Part shown: in pieces, positions 4,959 to 19,270 of the stretch | Position numbering within the stretch: the first letter of the stretch is position 1 | How the letters are laid out: the number at the start of each line of letters is the position of its first letter | DNA from: a virus | UHGV virus genome: UHGV-1270568 | Strand: one strand, 5' to 3' | DNA: 19,450 nucleotides | The notes under the pieces: model-generated | The model's database searches: none | The model's input: only the letters and a program-made list of their open reading frames with translations | Told to the model about the DNA's origin: nothing | Position numbers and translations under genes: made by a program

Positions 4959-6710
4959 ATGATTCAGGACGCTTTTGTGCGCCAGCGTGCGCGGCAACTT
5001 TACTGGCAGGGTTATCCGCCCGCAGAAATATCACGTCTGATGGGAATAAACCCGAACACGATTTATGCGTGGAAAAAACGCGACCAGTGGGATGAAACGC
5101 CACCCGTGCAGCGTGTCACGCAGTCCATCGATGCGCGCCTCATCCAGCTTACTGAAAAACAGAATAAAACAGGCGGTGACTTTAAGGAAATAGACCTGCT
5201 GACCCGGCAGCTTAAAAAAATGCATGATGGCCAGCCGGATGCGACGGCCACAGGAAAGAAAGGTCGGGCGAAAAAACTCAAAAATCATTTCACGCCGGAA
5301 CAGATTGCCGCACTGCGGGAAAAAATCATCAGCAGGCTGGAGTGGCATCAGCGGGGCTGGTTTGACTCCCTGACCCTTTGCAGGGAAGCCGGGATACGTA
5401 ACAGGATGATCCTGAAATCCCGACAGATTGGCGCGACCTGGTATTTTGCACAGGAAGCACTGCTGATGGCGCTGCGTGACGATGTGGCGCAACCTTACCA
5501 GCGTAACCAGATTTTTTTGTCTGCGTCGCGTCGTCAGGCGTTCCAGTTTAAAAGCATTATTCAGAAGGCCGCGGCTGAAGTTGATGTGGAGCTGAAAGGG
5601 GGCGATAAAATCATCCTCTCCAACGGCGCAGAGCTGCATTTTCTCGGCACTTCTGCTGCGTCGGCGCAGTCCTATACGGGCAATTTTTATTTTGATGAAT
5701 TTTTCTGGGTCAGTCGCTTTGCTGAACTGCGCAAGGTGGCTGGCGCTATGGCAACCCTCAGCGGATTGCGGCGCACCTACTTCTCCACGCCATCCACCGA
5801 AACGCACGAAGCATACGCCTACTGGAACGGCGACCGCTGGAACGAGAAAAAGGCCACGCATAAACGCCAGCGTTTTTCTGTGGACTGGAAAACGCTGCAT
5901 AACGGGCTTATCTGCCCTGACCGGACGTGGCGGCAAATTGTCACGCTGGAAGATGTGGTTAATCACGGCTGGAAACACACCGATATCGACGAAATTCGTG
6001 ATGAAAACACCGAAGACGAGTTCCTCAATCTCTATATGTGTGAGTTTGTCCGCGAAGGGGAATCGGCATTTAACCTGAATATCCTGATTGGCTGCGGTGT
6101 TGACGGATACGACGACTGGAAAGACTGGAAACCTTTTGCTCCCCGCCCGATGGGGAATCGTCCGGTATGGATTGGGTATGACGCAAACGGCAGCAGTGGC
6201 AACGGCGACAGCGGCGCTGTATCCGTGGTGGTTCCTCCGGCTGTTCCTGGTGGCCGTTTTCGAACGGTGGAGACGCGACGCGTTCAGGGGCTGGAGTTTG
6301 AAGAACAGGCCAGAGTCATTGAAGAGTTCACGTGTCGCTACAACGTGGAACACATCGGCATTGATGTGACGGGCGGGAACGGGGAGGCTGTTTATCAGAT
6401 AGTGAAACGGTTTTTCCCTGCCGCTATTCCGTACACCTTCACGCTGTCATCAAAACGGTCGCTGGTACTGAAAATGCTGCAAATAATGCGTGCCGGGCGG
6501 TGGGAATACGATCGCGCCGAACGCGAGCTGGTCGCGGCCTTTAACGCCGTGCGTAAGGTGAAAACACCGGGCGGCTTTATCACTTACGAAACGGACCGTG
6601 CGAGGGGGATCAGCCACGGCGACCTTGCGTGGGCAACCATGCTTGCTGTCATTAACGAACCGATTGGCGGCGAAGGAGAAAACGAGCGTTTCACGGTTAT
6701 GGAGTTCTGA
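4959..6710 (+). CDS. P: Terminase large (ATPase) subunit, P2 gpP-like
   Basis: 583 aa; GGGGAG RBS; N-terminal RQLYWQGY...ISRLMGINPNTIYAWKKRDQWDE resembles the gpP N-terminus; stop overlaps the Q start (TGATG). Confidence 0.9.
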   Translation: MIQDAFVRQRARQLYWQGYPPAEISRLMGINPNTIYAWKKRDQWDETPPVQRVTQSIDARLIQLTEKQNKTGGDFKEIDLLTRQLKKMHDGQPDATATGKKGRAKKLKNHFTPEQIAALREKIISRLEWHQRGWFDSLTLCREAGIRNRMILKSRQIGATWYFAQEALLMALRDDVAQPYQRNQIFLSASRRQAFQFKSIIQKAAAEVDVELKGGDKIILSNGAELHFLGTSAASAQSYTGNFYFDEFFWVSRFAELRKVAGAMATLSGLRRTYFSTPSTETHEAYAYWNGDRWNEKKATHKRQRFSVDWKTLHNGLICPDRTWRQIVTLEDVVNHGWKHTDIDEIRDENTEDEFLNLYMCEFVREGESAFNLNILIGCGVDGYDDWKDWKPFAPRPMGNRPVWIGYDANGSSGNGDSGAVSVVVPPAVPGGRFRTVETRRVQGLEFEEQARVIEEFTCRYNVEHIGIDVTGGNGEAVYQIVKRFFPAAIPYTFTLSSKRSLVLKMLQIMRAGRWEYDRAERELVAAFNAVRKVKTPGGFITYETDRARGISHGDLAWATMLAVINEPIGGEGENERFTVMEF

Positions 6711-7756
6711 TGAGCAGAAAAAATAAAAAAGTGCGCATGAGTTCACGCATTGATCTCGCTGATGCGCTCAGGAAAGAATCATCGCTCAGTGCATTCACAT
6801 TTGATGGTCCTTATCGCCTGACCGGGCATGACCTGCTGGACAATATGTACTGTGCTGATAACGGGCGGTGGTATGAAACCCCGGTGGACTGGTACGGTCT
6901 GGCAAGAGCTGCCCGGCAAACGTCCTGGCATCAGTCTGCGCTTTACTTTAAGCGCAATGTATTACTCGGTTGCTACATCCCGCACCCGTTGCTTTCCCGG
7001 CAGGATTTCTCGGCGCTGGCGCTGGACTGGTTTGTGTTCGGTAACGCATTCCTTGAGCTTCGAAGCAATATGCTCGGCGAACCGCTTAAATTACGGCACG
7101 CCCTGGCGAAATACATGCGACGCGGAAGCGATCTTGAATCATGGTGGTATGTGCAGGATGGCAAGGACGCGTTTCAGTTTCGCCCTGGCAAAGTGTGCCA
7201 CCTGATGAATCCTGACATTAACCAGGAAATCTACGGCATGCCGGAATATCTCGGCGCATTACTCTCGGCCAGCCTGTCTCATTCGGCGGACATGTTCAGA
7301 AAACTGTATTACGACAATGGATCCCACGCCGGGTGCATCATCTACATCGGTGCAGCGCAGGTAAACCGCGAAAGCATGGACTCCCTGAAAGAAACGCTAC
7401 AGGGGGCACGTGGTGGTGGTGCGTTTAAAAACGTGCTCATTCATGCGCCTAACGGGGGCAAAGAGGGGGTGCAAATTTTGCCGTTCCAGCAGATCACCGC
7501 AAAGGATGAGTTCATGAATGTTAAGGCGGCATCCCGTGATGATGTGCTGGCTGCGCACCGCGTTCCGCCGCAACTGATGGGGGCGATGCCGGGCGAAAAA
7601 AGTGCGTTTGGTGATGTGGAGAAGGCCGCGCGGGTTTACGCAATTAACGAGCTGATGCCCGTCATGGAGGCCATGAAGCACATCAATGACTGGCTTGGCG
7701 AAGAGGTGATCCGCTTTAACCCTTACGCACTGTTAGACACCCTGCCCACATCCTGA
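6710..7756 (+). CDS. Q: Portal (capsid vertex) protein, P2 gpQ-like
   Basis: 348 aa; translationally coupled to P; same size and position as P2 gpQ, last gene before the cos region. Confidence 0.85.
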   Translation: MSRKNKKVRMSSRIDLADALRKESSLSAFTFDGPYRLTGHDLLDNMYCADNGRWYETPVDWYGLARAARQTSWHQSALYFKRNVLLGCYIPHPLLSRQDFSALALDWFVFGNAFLELRSNMLGEPLKLRHALAKYMRRGSDLESWWYVQDGKDAFQFRPGKVCHLMNPDINQEIYGMPEYLGALLSASLSHSADMFRKLYYDNGSHAGCIIYIGAAQVNRESMDSLKETLQGARGGGAFKNVLIHAPNGGKEGVQILPFQQITAKDEFMNVKAASRDDVLAAHRVPPQLMGAMPGEKSAFGDVEKAARVYAINELMPVMEAMKHINDWLGEEVIRFNPYALLDTLPTS

Positions 7757-7782
7757 CGCGCTTCGCTTGTCTGCTGCTTCGC

Positions 7783-7807
7783 CGGGGCATAAAAAATTTA
7801 TGCCCCG
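7783..7807. other. Perfect 11-bp stem, 3-nt loop hairpin (CGGGGCATAAA aaa TTTATGCCCCG) 27 bp after the Q stop
   Basis: Read directly from the sequence; no U-tract on either strand, so it may be a Rho-independent-like structure without a tail or a packaging recognition element. Confidence 0.5.
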
Positions 7808-7843
7808 ACTCTCCAGCTCCTGTATCAGTCAGATAATTTCACG

Positions 7844-7863
7844 ATGCTTTCCTGCTGATTGCC
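7844..7863. other. Candidate cos cohesive-end site
   Basis: ATGCTTTCCTGCTGATTGCC. The first 8-9 nt match the complement of the P2/186 cohesive-end sequence as I remember it (GTGCTTTCCCCGCCTCGCC), and the distance from the Q stop (about 90 bp) matches P2 geometry. The rest diverges. Confidence 0.3.
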
Positions 7864-8085
7864 ATCATCGACAGTCAGACTCTTACACAATCCCACCGCG
7901 TTGACTGCATGTTCTCGCCGCCTCAGTGCGATTTTGACGGCCTTATCTTCCACTCCATCAAATCAAAAGCCCTCACGTCGTTTTCACGCTCAGCGTGAGA
8001 AATACAGCCATTCTGTTGTGTCGCTGCGACATCGTTCAGGGGATGCTATTTACCCCCTGAAACGCGGGCTGTTCCCCCGTCACCT

Positions 8086-8110
8086 GCGCGCAGAAAAAGC
8101 GCGTTTTTTT
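8086..8110 (+). terminator. Plus-strand Rho-independent terminator candidate
   Basis: Short GC stem (CGCGC / GCGCG, loop AGAAAAA) followed by TTTTTTT. Confidence 0.4.
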
Positions 8111-8180
8111 GTGCACGCACGGATCCTTGACGGATCCAGCCGCCATGCGGGCCGGAAGGGTAAAAAGTCGTTCAAAAAAA

Positions 8181-8208
8181 TTGTGCAAATTTGTGCACTT
8201 TTGTGCAA
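8181..8208. repeat. Three direct repeats TTGTGCA(A/C) at exact 10-bp spacing (8181, 8191, 8201); a fourth copy at 8109..8116
   Basis: Read directly; helical-phase periodicity suggests a protein-binding array in the cos-proximal region. Confidence 0.6.
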
Positions 8209-8233
8209 ACAAAAAGCGCCCCTGAGGCGCTTT
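8201..8233 (-). terminator. Minus-strand Rho-independent terminator closing the A / cargo operon
   Basis: 8-bp stem AAAGCGCC / GGCGCTTT with loop CCTGA at 8213..8233; on the minus strand it is followed by TTTTGTTTG. Confidence 0.55.
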
Positions 8234-8267
8234 AGTGTTTTATAGGTTGTGTATATTTGCTGGGTCC

Positions 8268-8531
8268 TTATCCTGCTGTGCTTTCAACTGATGAGGGGAA
8301 CAAAATCTTTTCATCAAACCCTGCATTCATATCATGGACAGCAACACACCAATCCATTGACGAACGATTATCAAGAGCCTCCATGATTTCATCCATGCGG
8401 CGTAGGTCATACAGGTAAATGCTTTTATCGCCAATGGTGTAAAAACCAATTTTTTTCGGTGATGGACAGCGATCAAGAACGTCCTGTAATTCGTTCAACC
8501 ATGCCCGTTCTTTTTTTGTCAAAGTTGCCAT
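8268..8531 (-). CDS. Hypothetical 87-aa protein, third gene of the cargo cassette
   Basis: MATLTKKERAWLNELQDVLDRCPSPKKIGFYTIGDK...; AAGGAGAG RBS lies inside the 17-bp linker repeat; single-nucleotide gap to the upstream stop. No family recognised. Confidence 0.6.
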   Translation of the reverse strand: MATLTKKERAWLNELQDVLDRCPSPKKIGFYTIGDKSIYLYDLRRMDEIMEALDNRSSMDWCVAVHDMNAGFDEKILFPSSVESTAG

Positions 8532-8532
8532 A

Positions 8533-9024
8533 TCACTCTCCTTTGATGCGAATACCAGTGGTACTCATTATCCTGATTTCCCAGAGCACACGAGGAACAC
8601 CACCGTTTCCGACTGGATCGCGTTTACTCCGCAGGGCGACGCTTGATTCCGCCCAGCTTTTTCTTGGAGGAAGCGCTTTCACACGAACAAAACCAGCTGC
8701 GCGAAGAGATGCTCCTGATTCATCTGCCCGGGTGTACGTAATACAACGTTGATAACCCATAGCTTTTGCTGCCCGCCAGACAGCACCATAAAGCGCGCTG
8801 TTAGCGTTGCGTTCTCCTGTGGTACATGTGCGATTTACTTCAAGCGTTAATCCATCATCCAAATGTCGTGCAACAGGTCGACCGGCTGTCGCCACACCTA
8901 TCAATTCTCCGGCATCATTTCTCAGACCAATGCTGAATTTATGCCCCACCGGGGGTTTATTGTGTCGGTGATGTCTGGATATAAACGCCTTCGCAACACG
9001 AAGAGTAACCGGTGAAATTTGCAT
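8533..9024 (-). CDS. Hypothetical 163-aa protein, possibly GNAT-like fold; second gene of the cargo cassette
   Basis: Track ORF 8533..9063; preferred start is ATG 9024 (MQISPVTLRV...) with AAGGAGAG RBS. The segment ...NANSALYGAVWRAAKAMGY... and the C-terminal ...SGASLRAAGFVRV... loosely resemble GNAT motifs; this assignment is weak. Ends ...IRIKGE encoded by the linker repeat. Confidence 0.55.
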   Translation of the reverse strand: MQISPVTLRVAKAFISRHHRHNKPPVGHKFSIGLRNDAGELIGVATAGRPVARHLDDGLTLEVNRTCTTGERNANSALYGAVWRAAKAMGYQRCITYTRADESGASLRAAGFVRVKALPPRKSWAESSVALRSKRDPVGNGGVPRVLWEIRIMSTTGIRIKGE

Positions 9025-9026
9025 TC

Positions 9027-9602
9027 TCACTCTCCTTTGATGCCAATGTTTACAGACTGGCAAGCCTCTTTGAGCACCCAGTCAACAGCGTCTTTCCATG
9101 CTCCGGTTTCGACTGGCGGATTCTCACGCTTTACCTGTTCATAGAAACGCACCGCTCTAACCAGTCCATCTGACGGTTTTGCCTGTAGTGCAGCCTGAGC
9201 TATGCGGTATGCCTGGAGCATACGGGCGTCGTTGGCTTTTTTGCGGTTGATGTTGGCTATGTCCGGCTGTGCGTTTGTGTCGAAATACTCGCTCAGTGGC
9301 AGGGTGACAACCACATCCACCTCCTGTGGCGTGATGCCTGATTTGACCAGCGCGTGATGAATGGCAATGACATTCACATCGCTGTACTGGTATTGCGTGT
9401 CAGTCGTCTGGACAAAGCGATCGCTGACCGGATCAAAACCATAGCGCACGCCATCAAGCATGTAGTTCGCGGGCTGCGTGCCACCGAACGGCGCAGACCA
9501 TTCCGACTTGAAGCTGTTCGGGCTGATGGCGTTGCGGCGTTCGCCGTTCTCAGTCCATGCCAGCTTGGTGTTGGTGGAGCCGTCATCGATACAAATTTTC
9601 AT
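9027..9602 (-). CDS. Chimeric protein: N-terminal 120-odd aa ParM/StbA-like (actin-fold ATPase N-terminus) fused to an unrelated 68-aa C-terminus
   Basis: MKICIDDGSTNTKLAW...ISPNSFK.EW...YSDVNV.A.HHAL..SG....EVD.V.T.PL......N.QP...NI.RKKAN tracks the N-terminus of plasmid R1 ParM as I remember it (phosphate-1 motif DDGSTN), then diverges. No ParM C-terminal half in any frame. AAGGAA RBS. Ends ...NIGIKGE from the linker repeat. Confidence 0.6.
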   Translation of the reverse strand: MKICIDDGSTNTKLAWTENGERRNAISPNSFKSEWSAPFGGTQPANYMLDGVRYGFDPVSDRFVQTTDTQYQYSDVNVIAIHHALVKSGITPQEVDVVVTLPLSEYFDTNAQPDIANINRKKANDARMLQAYRIAQAALQAKPSDGLVRAVRFYEQVKRENPPVETGAWKDAVDWVLKEACQSVNIGIKGE

Positions 9603-9636
9603 GTCGCTTTTCCTTATGTTGATTAATTAATCGTTT

Positions 9637-9656
9637 ACGGGATTCTGAAATCCCGT
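9637..9656. repeat. Palindrome ACGGGAT-N6-ATCCCGT, copy 1, between the A stop and the first cargo gene
   Basis: ACGGGATTCTGAAATCCCGT followed on the plus strand by TTTTGCC. Confidence 0.6.
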
Positions 9657-9678
9657 TTTTGCCTGTTTTATGCGCGCT

Positions 9679-12501
9679 TCATATATCGCGGCGCGTTTTT
9701 TGCTCATTTACGGGATTTGTGAATCCCGTTTCTGTCTGTTTTTTGTTTCCACTGGTCAGGCCACCCCGCAGCAGGTCTGCTTTGCGGCGGGCGCGTTCAG
9801 TGGTTTCACTGATTCTCTGTGCGTGCTCTGCGTCGCGGATGGCGCGCAGCATGTCAGAAAGCACGGTAACGGGTGTTTTCATGGTGTTCTGGTCTTGCTG
9901 AAGTGTGGATGCCAGGCGTGCGGCGGCTTCGGGGTCTGATGCCCTCAGCTGTTCCAGATAGCTGGCGACCGGGTTATGGCGGATCTCCGTACTGCTTACG
10001 CCGTGGTTACGGCTCAGGCGCTGCCAGAGCTGCGTGATCCGGCTGTCCGGTCGGGTATCCGGTTTGCGTACAATTTCAAATCCCTGCGGTGCAATGATGC
10101 TGCCGTCAACGTACAGACTGCCGCCCCGTAACAGGTGCTGCATCTGCTGTTCACCGATATGCAGGCCGAGAGATTCGGCAGATTCCCGCCATTCTTTAGC
10201 GAGTAATTCGTGGTTATCAGGCAAAGGCCGCTGCTGTTTGCGGCTCTGTGTCCAGCTCTGCATTTCATCACTGCTGTTTTTTGCCTGTTTGTCACGAAGC
10301 GAACGCATCAGCGCCCGGCGTTCGTGCCGTTTCAGTGAGCGCATCCATTCGTTCACGTCAACGCCGTCAGGAAGCTGCGGCCACGGTGCTGGCCGTTCTT
10401 CCGGCTGTTCTGTCCCGTTGTTGTCCGTTTCCTGTACACGGGGACAGTTATTGCCACGAGTCCAAGGGGCGGCAGGGCCGCCCTGAAGGTCAAAACCATT
10501 TTCGCGGGCGCTGTCTTCCGTTTCCGGTTTACGTCTTACCAGTTTCCAGTTATCCGGATGCGTGCACACACGGGAGGATTCCCCGATGAGTGGTGACCAG
10601 ATCCCGTAAATCTGTACGCTCTGTTCGCCGTAATCATTCAGCTCATCTGCGAGGTCGTAGGCGGTGCGAATCAGGTAGTCTTTGCGTGGAACAAGTACGC
10701 CGCCCTGTTTTTCAATGTAGGTGGCAAAACACCCGGCATCGGCGGCAGCGAGTACCGCATCCATTGCGTCATCTTTCAGTCGTTGCGGGCCTTCCGGGTT
10801 GCGTGCCATCTGGCTGGCAAGGCGGCGCAGTTCACGCCACACCTGACGGGAGGGGATGCCAAAGAACTGGAACTGGCGGACCCGATGAAGGCGCGCCCAG
10901 CCGATGGCGCGCTCCACACTCTCGGCCATTGATTTTCCGGTTTCGTGGTCAACGCGTGGCTTGCCCGTTTTCGGGTCGATGCCATCCACGGCGCGGCTGT
11001 CCAGGTTCTTTCCGATGTAGGTCGCGATATAGCTGGTTGGTGTGCCTTTTGAGCCGTCGACATACTCCGCCTTAAAGCGCGGAGTAATATCATTGCCCAG
11101 CTCGTGGCGGTCTTCCTGAATGGCAATATCGCGGGTGATGGCCACGATGCTGTCGATTTCTTCCGGATGAGCAAAGACCATCATATGCCAGTGCACGGTG
11201 CCGTCATGGTGAGGCTCCACCGTGCGGATGCCATACCAGCGAAGACCGTCGCGGTTCAGTTTTTTGCGGACCGCCGCAAAAAACGTGTTAACCAGGTAAT
11301 CGCTGGAGTCGCGCATGGTGGCCCCGTTCCATTTGGGATTCGGATGACCGTTCTCTGTTGTGGCGTGGTATTTTGACGGGCAGGTGACAGTCAGAAACAC
11401 CGCTTTGTCGCCACGGGCTTCGGCCAGAAGTTCCAGCCCCTTCATGGTGGCCATCATTTCTGCCTTACGGTGAACCGGGTTACTTACTCCCGCGTAATAC
11501 ACTGTCTCGAGATCAATCGTGAACCCGTCTTCGTTTTCCAGCATGAAACTTTTCAGGAAATCGCGTGTTTTCTCGCGCTGTGCGCGAAACTCGCTTAACG
11601 CGTCCTGGCTCAGATAGGGTGATGTTTTTCTGGAAACCAGACAGGCGGCGCGGAGTTGTTCTTCTCTCCACTCGCAACGTAACAGCCACAGTTTGCGTTT
11701 CCACCATTCCGCACAGGTCAGGCGAAGGACTGCGCCCGGCAGCAGCTCCGTGTCCGGTTCGTTCCTCCGGTCTTTATCTGTTGTCAGTGCGTCATAATGT
11801 GGAGGCATGATGTGCAGGTGTAACGCCATGCGGGCCAGCATCTGATACGCCTTCAGCGTTACATCCATGGTCAGCTCGCCATCTCTGGCACCAAAGCCAT
11901 CACAGAGTTTTTCGAAGGTGCTGCTGAACATCGCCGCCGTCATGGTGGCCAGCGACTGTATCTGGTGTTTGTTGAGCTGCGGCAGGTAAAGCAAATCGTC
12001 CAGGCGTTCGCGTCCGGCAAGGGAGCGATAACCCGGTGTCAGCCAGTGTCCGTCAGTGCGATCCAGACGTTCGAATATTTTGCGCAGGGTTCCGCGTGCA
12101 TAGCGTTCCGCCTGCCAGCTCTTTTTGCCTTTCCGGCGATCGGCTTCCTGTTTTTTGCGCAGGAAGGAGAGGTGGCGAATAAGCGGATCGCGCAGATAGG
12201 ACGGCAGCAGGCGCAGCGAGGCCATGGCTTCATCCACCGCGCCACGTGCCTGTTTTCTGGCTTCTCTGGCCAGTGTGATGGTTTTGTCCTGTTTTTCCTG
12301 TGCGTCCAGGCTTTTATTAATCAGGTTGCCCAGCGGCGTGGCGGAGAACGCCGCATCAGCCATTTCCTGGCGGCGCTCGTTCTCTGCCCGGTAGGCATCC
12401 AGCCAGGAGGAAAGCTCGGATTCAGGAGCGGGGATTCCCGTTCCTTCACGACCCACTGCGTGGCGCGGTTGTTGCCAGTCCCTGATGTACTCTGCCGTCA
12501 T
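9679..12501 (-). CDS. A: Rolling-circle replication initiation endonuclease, P2 gpA-like
   Basis: 940 aa; HUH-type motif TVHWHMMVFA (about residue 437) and paired-tyrosine motif TSYIATYIGK (Y491/Y495), matching the P2 gpA active site arrangement as I recall it; sits downstream of the early operon. Confidence 0.85.
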   Translation of the reverse strand: MTAEYIRDWQQPRHAVGREGTGIPAPESELSSWLDAYRAENERRQEMADAAFSATPLGNLINKSLDAQEKQDKTITLAREARKQARGAVDEAMASLRLLPSYLRDPLIRHLSFLRKKQEADRRKGKKSWQAERYARGTLRKIFERLDRTDGHWLTPGYRSLAGRERLDDLLYLPQLNKHQIQSLATMTAAMFSSTFEKLCDGFGARDGELTMDVTLKAYQMLARMALHLHIMPPHYDALTTDKDRRNEPDTELLPGAVLRLTCAEWWKRKLWLLRCEWREEQLRAACLVSRKTSPYLSQDALSEFRAQREKTRDFLKSFMLENEDGFTIDLETVYYAGVSNPVHRKAEMMATMKGLELLAEARGDKAVFLTVTCPSKYHATTENGHPNPKWNGATMRDSSDYLVNTFFAAVRKKLNRDGLRWYGIRTVEPHHDGTVHWHMMVFAHPEEIDSIVAITRDIAIQEDRHELGNDITPRFKAEYVDGSKGTPTSYIATYIGKNLDSRAVDGIDPKTGKPRVDHETGKSMAESVERAIGWARLHRVRQFQFFGIPSRQVWRELRRLASQMARNPEGPQRLKDDAMDAVLAAADAGCFATYIEKQGGVLVPRKDYLIRTAYDLADELNDYGEQSVQIYGIWSPLIGESSRVCTHPDNWKLVRRKPETEDSARENGFDLQGGPAAPWTRGNNCPRVQETDNNGTEQPEERPAPWPQLPDGVDVNEWMRSLKRHERRALMRSLRDKQAKNSSDEMQSWTQSRKQQRPLPDNHELLAKEWRESAESLGLHIGEQQMQHLLRGGSLYVDGSIIAPQGFEIVRKPDTRPDSRITQLWQRLSRNHGVSSTEIRHNPVASYLEQLRASDPEAAARLASTLQQDQNTMKTPVTVLSDMLRAIRDAEHAQRISETTERARRKADLLRGGLTSGNKKQTETGFTNPVNEQKTRRDI
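9710..9729. repeat. Palindrome ACGGGAT-N6-ATCCCGT, copy 2, inside the last about 15 codons of A
   Basis: ACGGGATTTGTGAATCCCGT, followed on the plus strand by a T-rich run; a third GC hairpin plus T6 lies between the two copies (9672..9701). Confidence 0.6.
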
Positions 12502-13543: not shown

Positions 13544-14374
13544 TTACTTCACCGGAACAAACGGAACAGCGGTGTTACTGGTCATGTATTGCGGTAGCGT
13601 GCCGTTCCATTTGTTAATCGCTTCCAGCTCCATAACGCCGGGATTCTGGCGCAGAGCTTCACCGCGTAAACGAATGGCGTCGGCTTCAGCCTGGGCTTTT
13701 GTGCGAATGGCATCGGCTTGTCCGGCAGCTTCTGCGCGCAGCATGTTGGCTTCAGCTTCGCGTTGCTTGACTTCCTGTTCACGTTGCAGGGTTTTCTGGT
13801 TTGCCGTGACTTTGGCATTAATGCTGTCGATAACGGTTGGCGGGTATTCCGGCTTACCCACATAAGAGAGGCTCATTACCTGAATGCCGATAGGTGTCAT
13901 TTCTGCCTGAATGTCTTTAAGTGCTGAATCCAGCAGTTCAGACTTGCCACCGTCGATAAATTTATCGGTGGTCATTTTGCTGGCCAGTCGGTTGAGTGCG
14001 TCGGCGATCTTCTGGCGCAGGTCAGTGTCGGTAATGTCATCCACGCCTTTGCGGTAGGTCTGAAACACTGTAGTAACTTTGGATGGATCAACCTTGTAGG
14101 CCACACCGATGTGATAGCCGATGGTTGTGCCGTCACTCATCTGAAAGCTGAACGGCTCATCGTAGGTCTTCATTTGTTTGAAGGTCGGGAAGATGTAAAC
14201 CTCGGTATTCCAGCCAGTCCAGTAGCGGCCAACGCCAACCACTTCGCCAACGCCTTTGTCGTCGCCCAGCTTGTTGACTTTGATGCCCACATTACCTGGC
14301 TCAACGCGATCGCAGCCAACCAGCAGGATGGCGGCAAAAAGCGGGAGAATCTGAAAGAGTTTGAATTTCTTCAT
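13544..14374 (-). CDS. SPFH / band-7 (prohibitin, HflC-like) domain lipoprotein
   Basis: 276 aa; N-terminal signal peptide with lipobox LLVGC; C-terminal Ala/Glu/Arg/Gln-rich coiled coil (QREQEVKQREAEANMLRAEAAGQADAIR...) typical of SPFH proteins; start overlaps upstream stop (ATGA). Confidence 0.7.
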   Translation of the reverse strand: MKKFKLFQILPLFAAILLVGCDRVEPGNVGIKVNKLGDDKGVGEVVGVGRYWTGWNTEVYIFPTFKQMKTYDEPFSFQMSDGTTIGYHIGVAYKVDPSKVTTVFQTYRKGVDDITDTDLRQKIADALNRLASKMTTDKFIDGGKSELLDSALKDIQAEMTPIGIQVMSLSYVGKPEYPPTVIDSINAKVTANQKTLQREQEVKQREAEANMLRAEAAGQADAIRTKAQAEADAIRLRGEALRQNPGVMELEAINKWNGTLPQYMTSNTAVPFVPVK

Positions 14375-18470: not shown

Positions 18471-18833
18471 GTGAAGTTTCATTTAGATGAACTTAAAAGA
18501 ATGGCAACGCTCGATAATTTTGCGCGTTTTCTCAATGAGTCGTCTACGAATGAAAAATGTTTGTCGTGTGGCGATACGGATATGTACATGTATTTGACGA
18601 ATATTGTTGAGGTGGGGCCTGAGCCGAAAACTGCTGAGGAGTGTGATTTAGGCACTCTTGTTATGCTTGATTATATCGGTCCATTTACTGGGTATCCGGG
18701 ATATGAGGGACATGATCGGGAAAATATCCATAACTATGAATTCCGACTTACCTGTAACAGATGTGGGTTTGTTCATCGTTACTCGGCCCGGGCCTTTATG
18801 AACTGGGTAGGCAAGCAGGGTGATGAGAAGTGA
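18471..18833 (+). CDS. Hypothetical 120-aa protein with two CxxC pairs (putative zinc ribbon), coupled to int
   Basis: GTG start 3 nt after the int stop with GGAGG RBS; CLSCGD ... CNRCGF; AT-rich codon usage compared with the phage core. Confidence 0.5.
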   Translation: MKFHLDELKRMATLDNFARFLNESSTNEKCLSCGDTDMYMYLTNIVEVGPEPKTAEECDLGTLVMLDYIGPFTGYPGYEGHDRENIHNYEFRLTCNRCGFVHRYSARAFMNWVGKQGDEK

Positions 18834-19270
18834 TGGCAGAGAATGTTGCACATATTTCGCGGTTCAGAAAAAAGAAAGAGAATGCCTATAATGTATCCAA
18901 CAACCAAGTAACAGGAAGTGGTAATGATGGAGGTGATGGCATGAATGACGACCTTGAACGGCGGGTCAGTTGCCTGGAAAGTGATGTGACTGAAATCAAA
19001 AACAACCTGATTACTCTCACCACAAGAAGCGAATCCTTTGCTACCAAATCTGATGTACTGGAGATTCGCGAAGGGTTGAGGCTTGAGATGGCAGAATCTC
19101 GCCAATCCCTGAAGTCTGAGATGGCTGATTTACGCCAGTCTCTGAAAGTTGAGATGGCTGAGCATCGTACTGAACTTCAGAAATCATTTGCAAATCAGAC
19201 TTGGTTACTCACAGGTATTGTCCTGTCTGCGATGGCCGTGCTTGTGGCTGTGGTTACTGTTATTAAGTAA
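18833..19270 (+). CDS. Coiled-coil protein with C-terminal TM anchor and three tandem 11-aa repeats
   Basis: Start either ATG 18833 (overlaps upstream stop, TGATG; the track's GTG 18830 is an alternative) or internal ATG 18941 with strong GGAGGTG RBS. Repeats EMAESRQSLKS / EMADLRQSLKV / EMAEHRTELQK (33-bp DNA repeats), then WLLTGIVLSAMAVLVAVVTVIK. Confidence 0.5.
   Translation: MAENVAHISRFRKKKENAYNVSNNQVTGSGNDGGDGMNDDLERRVSCLESDVTEIKNNLITLTTRSESFATKSDVLEIREGLRLEMAESRQSLKSEMADLRQSLKVEMAEHRTELQKSFANQTWLLTGIVLSAMAVLVAVVTVIK

Follow-up and report, generated by a model that had tools for sequence, protein, structure and literature searches.

An XF1762-family protein with the fold of phage Mu Mom, and its freely shuffled neighbour, in a P2-like Escherichia coli prophage

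The UHGV virus genome UHGV-1270568, a stretch of 19,450 nucleotides (the window), carries on its minus strand two adjoining genes for proteins of 163 and 87 residues, which a preliminary description made from the DNA letters had read as a possible GNAT-type toxin with a small partner. Our results lead elsewhere. The larger gene (8533..9024) encodes a GNAT-fold member of the XF1762 family whose closest structural match is the Mom protein of phage Mu, and the smaller (8268..8531) is a separate, freely shuffled accessory cassette, not a dedicated partner of its neighbour. On balance, and with modest confidence, we favour the reading that the 163-residue protein is a compact Mom-like transferase which modifies nucleic acid, the 87-residue gene beside it being an unrelated accessory cassette. 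Part of this is known already, from the RefSeq name of the larger gene and from its Mom-like assignment in PHROG, and the locus is a fairly ordinary one, not a new system.

A compact relative of Mom

The 163-residue gene starts at the ATG at 9024, and not at the TTG at 9063 that a longest-open-reading-frame listing had given, since a ribosome-binding site (AAAGGAGAG) precedes this ATG, homologues begin there and RefSeq agrees. Its product is strongly basic (isoelectric point (pI) 11.05, net charge +15), with a core at residues 1-151 and a C-terminal tail (152-163, ...TTGIRIKGE) that varies among homologues and encodes both a linker and the ribosome-binding site of the next gene. It belongs fully to NCBIfam XF1762_fam (NF045478), from which it shows no sequence difference, scoring 202.9 bits where the cut-off is 50 (E 1.9e-60, over positions 2-130 of the 143 in the profile), and a gene 100% identical to it is annotated in RefSeq as 'XF1762 family protein', a name taken from XF1762 of Xylella fastidiosa. 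It also falls within phrog_1384, 'Mom-like DNA modification protein' (E 2e-41), as does Mu Mom itself (E 8e-84), and Mu Mom has no match to the NCBIfam XF1762 model. Sequence searches of the 163- and 87-residue proteins against Protein Data Bank (PDB) chains returned nothing useful, and PADLOC-DB 2.0.0, searched at E<=1, held no match for either of them or for the 191-residue product of the open reading frame upstream.

An AlphaFold2 model of the 163-residue protein, built with a 72-sequence alignment, has a mean predicted local distance difference test (pLDDT) of 84.9 and the order beta1-alpha1-beta2-beta3-beta4-alpha3-beta5-alpha4-beta6-insertion-beta7, so that the alternating strand and helix pattern first noticed in the translation is present in the model. 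The guess of a GNAT fold was right as well: Foldseek against the PDB gave 360 matches at E<=1e-3, essentially all of them GNATs, and placed the crystal structure of Mu Mom (8BV8, chain 8bv8_B; E 5e-8, TMq 0.71) at the top, above hundreds of ordinary acetyltransferases. Mu Mom is a Gly-tRNA(Gly)-dependent adenine N6 hypermodification enzyme (6-NcmdA), and what the model suggests is an enzymatic, Mom-like role rather than the unrelated fold with a clear structural-phage function that the preliminary description had named as its possible undoing.

The resemblance extends to the active site. When the family was aligned by hhalign to a Mom profile built from 54 sequences, XF1762 residues H19, E62, N64, R65, N73 and S76 fell opposite Mom H58, E108, N110, R111, N121 and S124; within the XF1762 family H19, E62, R65 and N73 are invariant, and N64 and S76 are nearly so (>=90%). 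The active site of Mom is the segment M107-S124, in which R111 and S124 are essential (PMC13219725; 10.1101/2023.03.24.534169), and R111 is kept among Mom homologues and not GNAT-wide (10.1101/861617). The 163-residue protein thus keeps this segment (E-x-N-R...R-N-x-x-S), including the counterparts of R111 and S124, together with that of H58. A regular-expression search for the acetyl-coenzyme A (acetyl-CoA) motif Q/RxxGxG/A found no match anywhere in the protein, whose beta4-alpha3 loop reads TGERNANS, and the canonical CoA P-loop is absent from Mom and from the 163-residue protein alike. Both proteins are also basic and phage-borne, and in each of them an insertion separates beta6 from beta7. 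They differ in that Mom has 241 residues, the 163-residue protein lacking its N-terminal ~40, and in that no com-type regulator lies beside the 163-residue gene.

The family to which this protein belongs is very large, with more than 5,000 clusters of homologues at 90% identity and 3,892 at 50% identity (E<=1e-3), or 631 at E<=1e-30. It is also unusually conserved: proteins from Mycobacterium abscessus prophages share 55% identity with the E. coli protein, and those from Burkholderia phages 49%. Members occur in phages of Proteobacteria, Actinobacteria and Cyanobacteria, including those of Streptomyces, Microbacterium, Synechococcus and Pelagibacter, where in most other phages they sit in early, replication or pre-terminase modules, and also in polyvalent proteins of conjugative elements. 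Among 20 longer homologues that we scanned, a bona fide XF1762 domain was fused to a Dam-type N6-adenine DNA methyltransferase (P0382) and to a C5-cytosine (Dcm-type) DNA methyltransferase (P0412), and further fusions were to a PAPS-reductase-like domain, to DUF6884 and to the YodL/LPD28 modules of conjugative-element polyvalent proteins. These further architectures could guide function prediction: P0456 (968 residues) joins XF1762 to DUF6884, P0431 (373 residues) to YodL plus LPD28, and P0386 (248 residues) to the PAPS-reductase-like domain. Single loci point the same way as the methyltransferase fusions; a DNA methyltransferase gene begins within the XF1762 gene of Burkholderia phage phi1026b, and one Mycobacterium prophage has a DNA methyltransferase 1 kb upstream of XF1762 and an HNH gene downstream of it.

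From this homology, the charge, the absent CoA motif and the methyltransferase fusions, we infer a role on nucleic acid. The strongly basic protein would bind nucleic acid and transfer an acyl or aminoacyl group; if it works as Mu Mom does, it would use an activated donor, possibly an aminoacyl-tRNA instead of acetyl-CoA, for the covalent modification of DNA, and such a modification would shield phage DNA from host nucleases, giving the protein a putative anti-restriction role.

Several observations weigh against this reading. The protein reaches only 22 bits against the Pfam Mom model (PF25680), under the gathering score of 27.1, and matches only positions 3-118 of the 202 in the profile (E 1.5e-4), although many XF1762 members exceed that score (P0402, for instance, at 32.5 bits). 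The hhalign match between XF1762 and Mom is itself weak (probability 9-22%, E about 1e-3) and reliable in the N-terminal half only. In the global alignment, of low confidence in the C-terminal half, the essential R151 of Mom falls in a gap, Y159 opposite a leucine (L107) and Y59 opposite an arginine (R20). The helix-turn-helix (HTH)-like insertion of Mom (~175-209, about 35 residues), which lies between beta6 and beta7 and is essential for momylation (PMC13219725), is replaced in XF1762 by a loop of 26 residues without sequence similarity to it; in our model this loop (residues 119-144) has one 4-residue helix and a pLDDT of just 54-61, and the tail from 152 to 163 is disordered. The loop does have conserved residues of its own, namely W124, D136, G139 and G141. 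As for gene neighbourhoods, a DNA methyltransferase lies directly downstream of XF1762 in just 1-2 of 76 diverse viral loci, where the downstream genes are heterogeneous (terminase, helicases, HNH); such variety supports a DNA-metabolism setting with no fixed partner. We accordingly dropped the proposal that methyltransferases are enriched beside XF1762 and retained as hints only the fusions and the single loci. Cargo of the phage region in which the gene lies is, moreover, usually concerned with defence and not with counter-defence (PMC9122126). Lastly, a literature search on the name XF1762 found no mention of the family among the papers covered.

What, then, is the relation between the two families? 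Their common membership of PHROG 1384, the failure of Mom to match the XF1762 model and the score of the 163-residue protein below the Pfam Mom cut-off together argue that XF1762 is a distinct, shorter sister group of Mom. Given the altered positions of R151, Y159 and Y59 and the replaced HTH-like insertion, its substrate or chemistry may differ from Mom's, and so, with a changed acceptor side, may the product of the 163-residue enzyme. A bolder proposal, which we put forward only tentatively, is that XF1762 is a very large 'mini-Mom' clade in which the donor side of the active site is kept and the acceptor side remodelled (no R151, no Y159, no HTH-like insertion), and which could install a different, as yet undescribed nucleic-acid modification or modify a non-DNA target by way of aminoacyl-tRNA.

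Two neighbours that are not a conserved pair

Both genes are conserved and, as the preliminary description had it, they lie one nucleotide apart (position 8532). The downstream protein is indeed acidic (pI 4.83, net charge -4.4). Its sole match is phrog_1714, annotated as of unknown function, with no match in Pfam or NCBIfam; AlphaFold2 models it confidently as a small alpha/beta protein (pLDDT 90.8), for which no structural match was found in the PDB. The family is small (132 clusters) and well conserved, with an invariant Cys22, a RCPSPKKIGFYTIGD block and an FPSxVESTAG C-terminus, and it belongs mostly to phages and prophages of Enterobacterales, a few distant records coming from Vibrio, Aeromonas and others. 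Among phages it was found in 84 records, including P22-like phages, Salmonella and Klebsiella phages of 55-62 kb, and Vibrio phages. We also considered a 'split Mom', in which this protein would supply the C-terminal or HTH part that is absent from its neighbour, and rejected it: the 87-residue protein matches neither phrog_1384 nor Pfam Mom, the XF1762 model already has its beta6 and beta7, and the 87-residue fold matches nothing.

How often do the two genes travel together? Our pairing statistics come mostly from IMG/VR contigs and E. coli genomes and are dominated by closely related sequences, the species-representative scan comprising 11 loci of the 87-residue family; the joined pair was scored by coverage of a 301-nt probe across the junction. 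Among 5,426 complete E. coli genomes, the 87-residue gene is present in 978 and XF1762 in 154, and the junction in 84. An XF1762 gene lies directly upstream of the 87-residue gene in 16 of 92 occurrences (91 loci, mostly 99-100% identical to the copy in the window). Elsewhere that place is taken by a DUF4014 membrane protein (about 25 loci), by a family ending in ...ACRAAMLHGKGE (about 27 loci), by Ead/Ea22-like proteins, by a GmrSD_N-domain protein and by others, and nearly always with the same gap of one nucleotide. Seen from the other side, the 87-residue gene directly follows XF1762 in 36 of 81 occurrences (80 close loci), and elsewhere at least 10 different genes do so, such as those for DUF551 proteins or, in phage Kapi1, a 63-residue gene of phrog_1222.

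The Kapi1 gene (L003 1937-2128) has a weak match (E 5e-5) to the last 34 positions of a PHROG that bears the annotation DNA methyltransferase, a similarity that may reflect a shared linker or tail and not true homology.

At greater distances from the E. coli sequences the association vanishes. No homologue of the 87-residue gene lay within 3-4 kb of XF1762 at any of 19 loci with 80-86% identity or of 80 loci with 53-67% identity, and no XF1762 gene lay within 4 kb at any of the 11 species-representative loci of the 87-residue family. Phage records that carry XF1762 and those that carry the 87-residue gene barely overlap by host genus. Because the joined pair is rare, the neighbours vary on both sides, co-occurrence is nil in these two more distant sets (0/80 and 0/11) and host genera are hardly shared, XF1762 and the 87-residue gene are not a module.

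A shuffled cassette in the P2 hotspot

The way in which the two genes are joined offers a possible account of their meeting. The 15-mer ATCAAAGGAGAGTGA occurs exactly twice in the window, where 0.02 copies would be expected by chance, and both copies lie at gene junctions on the minus strand: one (8533..8547) makes up the final codons I-K-G-E-stop of the 163-residue gene and the Shine-Dalgarno sequence of the 87-residue gene, and the other, identical, copy (9027..9041) forms the 3' end of the 191-residue open reading frame and the ribosome-binding site of the 163-residue gene. In other phages, the unrelated upstream neighbours of the 87-residue gene likewise terminate in ...(I/L)KGE, and it is this same protein ending on unrelated neighbours that makes ATCAAAGGAGAGTGA probably a linker for cassette recombination. 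Accessory cassettes would recombine at a short conserved element consisting of ATCAAAGGAGAGTGA, one or two nucleotides and then ATG, which would also provide translational coupling, and the 87-residue gene would adjoin XF1762 merely through such an exchange.

This linker-joined arrangement is typical of the shuffled early-left 'ea' cassettes of lambdoid and P22-like phages (Ead/Ea22-like, DUF4014, DUF551, DUF550). Each of our two genes is found there in P22-like and lambda-like phages, with the same ...KGE-stop-ATG linker and the same independent shuffling. What differs here is that the cassettes have been transplanted into the hotspot between gpA and the portal gene of a P2-like phage, behind a partly deleted ParMR module.

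The flanking annotation of the matching RefSeq record identifies the window as a P2-like E. coli prophage (P88/Xuanwuvirus-type). A search with the 1,944-bp stretch at 7757-9700 found it at 100% identity in E. coli PO06021, and near-identical prophages of the same type are present in ST131, UTI89 and further strains. One border of the hotspot is the P2-type replication endonuclease gpA (9679..12501, minus strand; Pfam Phage_GPA E 3e-131, and RefSeq), the other the portal protein gpQ (6710..7756, plus strand; TIGR01540 and Pfam Phage_portal), and our two minus-strand genes sit between them, in the variable region near cos. The interval between gpA and gpQ is a described variable hotspot of P2-like phages, which in P2 holds old and tin and for which 1,650 distinct gene arrangements have been counted across E. 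coli (PMC9122126).

Within this interval, the two genes form the end of a small cargo operon that lies between gene A and the portal and cos side. Directly 3' of the 87-residue stop codon lies an intrinsic terminator-like hairpin (8213..8233, minus strand; a 9-bp stem with 5 GC pairs, followed by TTGTTTG), the predicted end of the transcription unit ahead of the cos and portal side. The minus strand from gpA to the cassette was scanned for a sigma-70-like promoter and none was found, which makes read-through from the early operon a plausible route of transcription, to judge from the letters of this interval, and leaves expression in the lysogen unsupported.

The operon was once longer. In the ST131 and UTI89 prophages the full cassette encodes ParM, a ParR-like protein, a ClpX-type zinc finger, a protein of 104 residues, XF1762 and the 87-residue protein. 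The window is 1,402 bp shorter, with a 5-bp overlap (microhomology) at the junction and a breakpoint near 9230-9234, and with this deletion the C-terminus of ParM, the ParR-like gene and the zinc-finger gene were lost. The 191-residue open reading frame (9027..9602, minus strand) is the resulting fusion, joining the N-terminal domain of ParM (Pfam StbA_N, residues 1-130) to the C-terminus of the 104-residue protein (phrog_26213/660 at 138-191), and PGAP labels both of its halves as pseudogenes. It is thus a remnant of a longer cargo array, in which the XF1762 and 87-residue genes are still intact. We considered the ClpX-type zinc-finger gene, which lies two genes upstream of XF1762 in the undeleted cassette, as an analogue of Mu com, and set this aside, given that just 5 of 80 XF1762 loci have it and that the window has lost it.

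Other features of the prophage deserve a brief mention. The ParMR partition module is itself unusual cargo for the hotspot of a P2-like prophage. Two near-identical 20-nt palindromes, ACGGGATT(N4)AATCCCGT, at 9637-9656 and 9710-9729, lie on either side of the gene A stop codon, shortly upstream of what is left of parM, and might serve as an operator or as a centromere site of the parC kind. Past the integrase, at the prophage end beside btuC, two overlapping open reading frames of 120 and 146 residues (18471-18833 and 18830-19270, plus strand) have no Pfam match and could be integrase-proximal cargo. In the early region, a protein of 276 residues with an SPFH/Band-7 domain is encoded at 13544-14374 (minus strand), beside a truncated ash-family gene.

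Competing explanations and implications

Could the two genes nevertheless work together? In the toxin-antitoxin or abortive-infection module that was first proposed, a basic GNAT toxin, perhaps one that acetylates aminoacyl-tRNA like TacT or AtaT, would be neutralised by the acidic 87-residue protein. The contrast between pI 11.05 and 4.83, the one-nucleotide gap and a coupled translation would all suit such a module, as would a location in a hotspot rich in defence systems (PMC9122126), and over-expression of Mom is itself toxic, Mom being moreover a binder of charged tRNA (PMC13219725; 10.1101/861617). We hold this explanation to be highly improbable, however, since the genes are not conserved as a pair (84 E. 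coli genomes with the junction, 978 with the 87-residue gene and 154 with XF1762, and no pair in the two distant sets): the 87-residue homologue is absent from XF1762-carrying phage genomes of other phyla, whilst phages of Salmonella, Klebsiella and Vibrio with genomes of ~55-140 kb, outside the XF1762-carrying records, do have homologues of it. To our knowledge, the GNAT toxins of TacAT, AtaRT, KacAT and ItaRT use the canonical motif to bind acetyl-CoA, and an upstream ribbon-helix-helix (RHH)/DUF1778 antitoxin accompanies them in every case. Those systems share with our locus the GNAT fold, a small adjoining gene and an involvement of aminoacyl-tRNA (as substrate there, possibly as donor here), but here the CoA motif is missing, no RHH/DUF1778-type antitoxin is present, and the would-be partner has an unrelated fold and lies downstream, the large-gene-first order that the preliminary description had itself found unlike known GNAT modules being indeed the reverse of theirs. 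PADLOC is negative, the closest relatives are of Mom type and not of TacT or AtaT type, and many unrelated cassette pairs use the same one-nucleotide junction. A looser form of partnership would make the 87-residue protein a facultative modulator of XF1762 (an inhibitor, specificity factor or regulator) recruited recently in this E. coli lineage. The junction is, after all, present in 84 of the 154 XF1762-carrying E. coli genomes (55%), and the charges of the two proteins are again opposite. Yet an identical 87-residue gene follows at least 6 unrelated genes, the beta1-beta7 core of XF1762 is complete without it, and the protein has no homology to Mom, to Com or to any known regulator; a modulator of this kind seems to us improbable.

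The remaining alternatives concern XF1762 by itself. It might serve as a prophage defence effector that keeps competitors out by modifying or disabling the DNA of incoming phages or the tRNA of the host, an idea to which the hotspot of old, tin and many defence systems (PMC9122126) and the resemblance to the nucleic-acid-acting Mom lend some weight. We think it unlikely all the same, for there is no PADLOC match, the missing sigma-70-like promoter leaves expression in the lysogen without support, and the contexts of XF1762 in most other phages are typical of self-protection or counter-defence. Alternatively, nucleic acid might not be its target at all, and the enzyme might instead acylate a small molecule or a protein, perhaps shutting off a defence protein of the host in the manner of the anti-CRISPR AcrVA5. 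The GNAT fold is generic and many acetyltransferases are structurally close, and both the HTH-like DNA-binding insertion of Mom and its R151 are missing here; on the other hand, the motif that binds the CoA pyrophosphate is absent, the Mom-specific E-x-N-R and N-x-x-S segment is kept, and the net charge of +15 and the DNA methyltransferase fusions point to nucleic acid, so that this alternative, too, appears unlikely. We therefore return to a compact Mom-like transferase that would act on nucleic acid, with an unrelated accessory cassette downstream.

Whichever substrate the enzyme may have, the XF1762 and 87-residue locus should stay off lists of candidate defence systems. It illustrates instead how lambdoid accessory cassettes enter the P2 hotspot, by way of a putative 15-nt linker. 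The XF1762 family itself, widespread yet unstudied, stands to Mu Mom as a compact sister group. How Mom hypermodifies DNA in a tRNA-dependent reaction was worked out just in 2023-2026, and XF1762 may extend or vary that chemistry. If XF1762 proteins do modify DNA, Mom-type chemistry would be far commoner in phages than has been thought.

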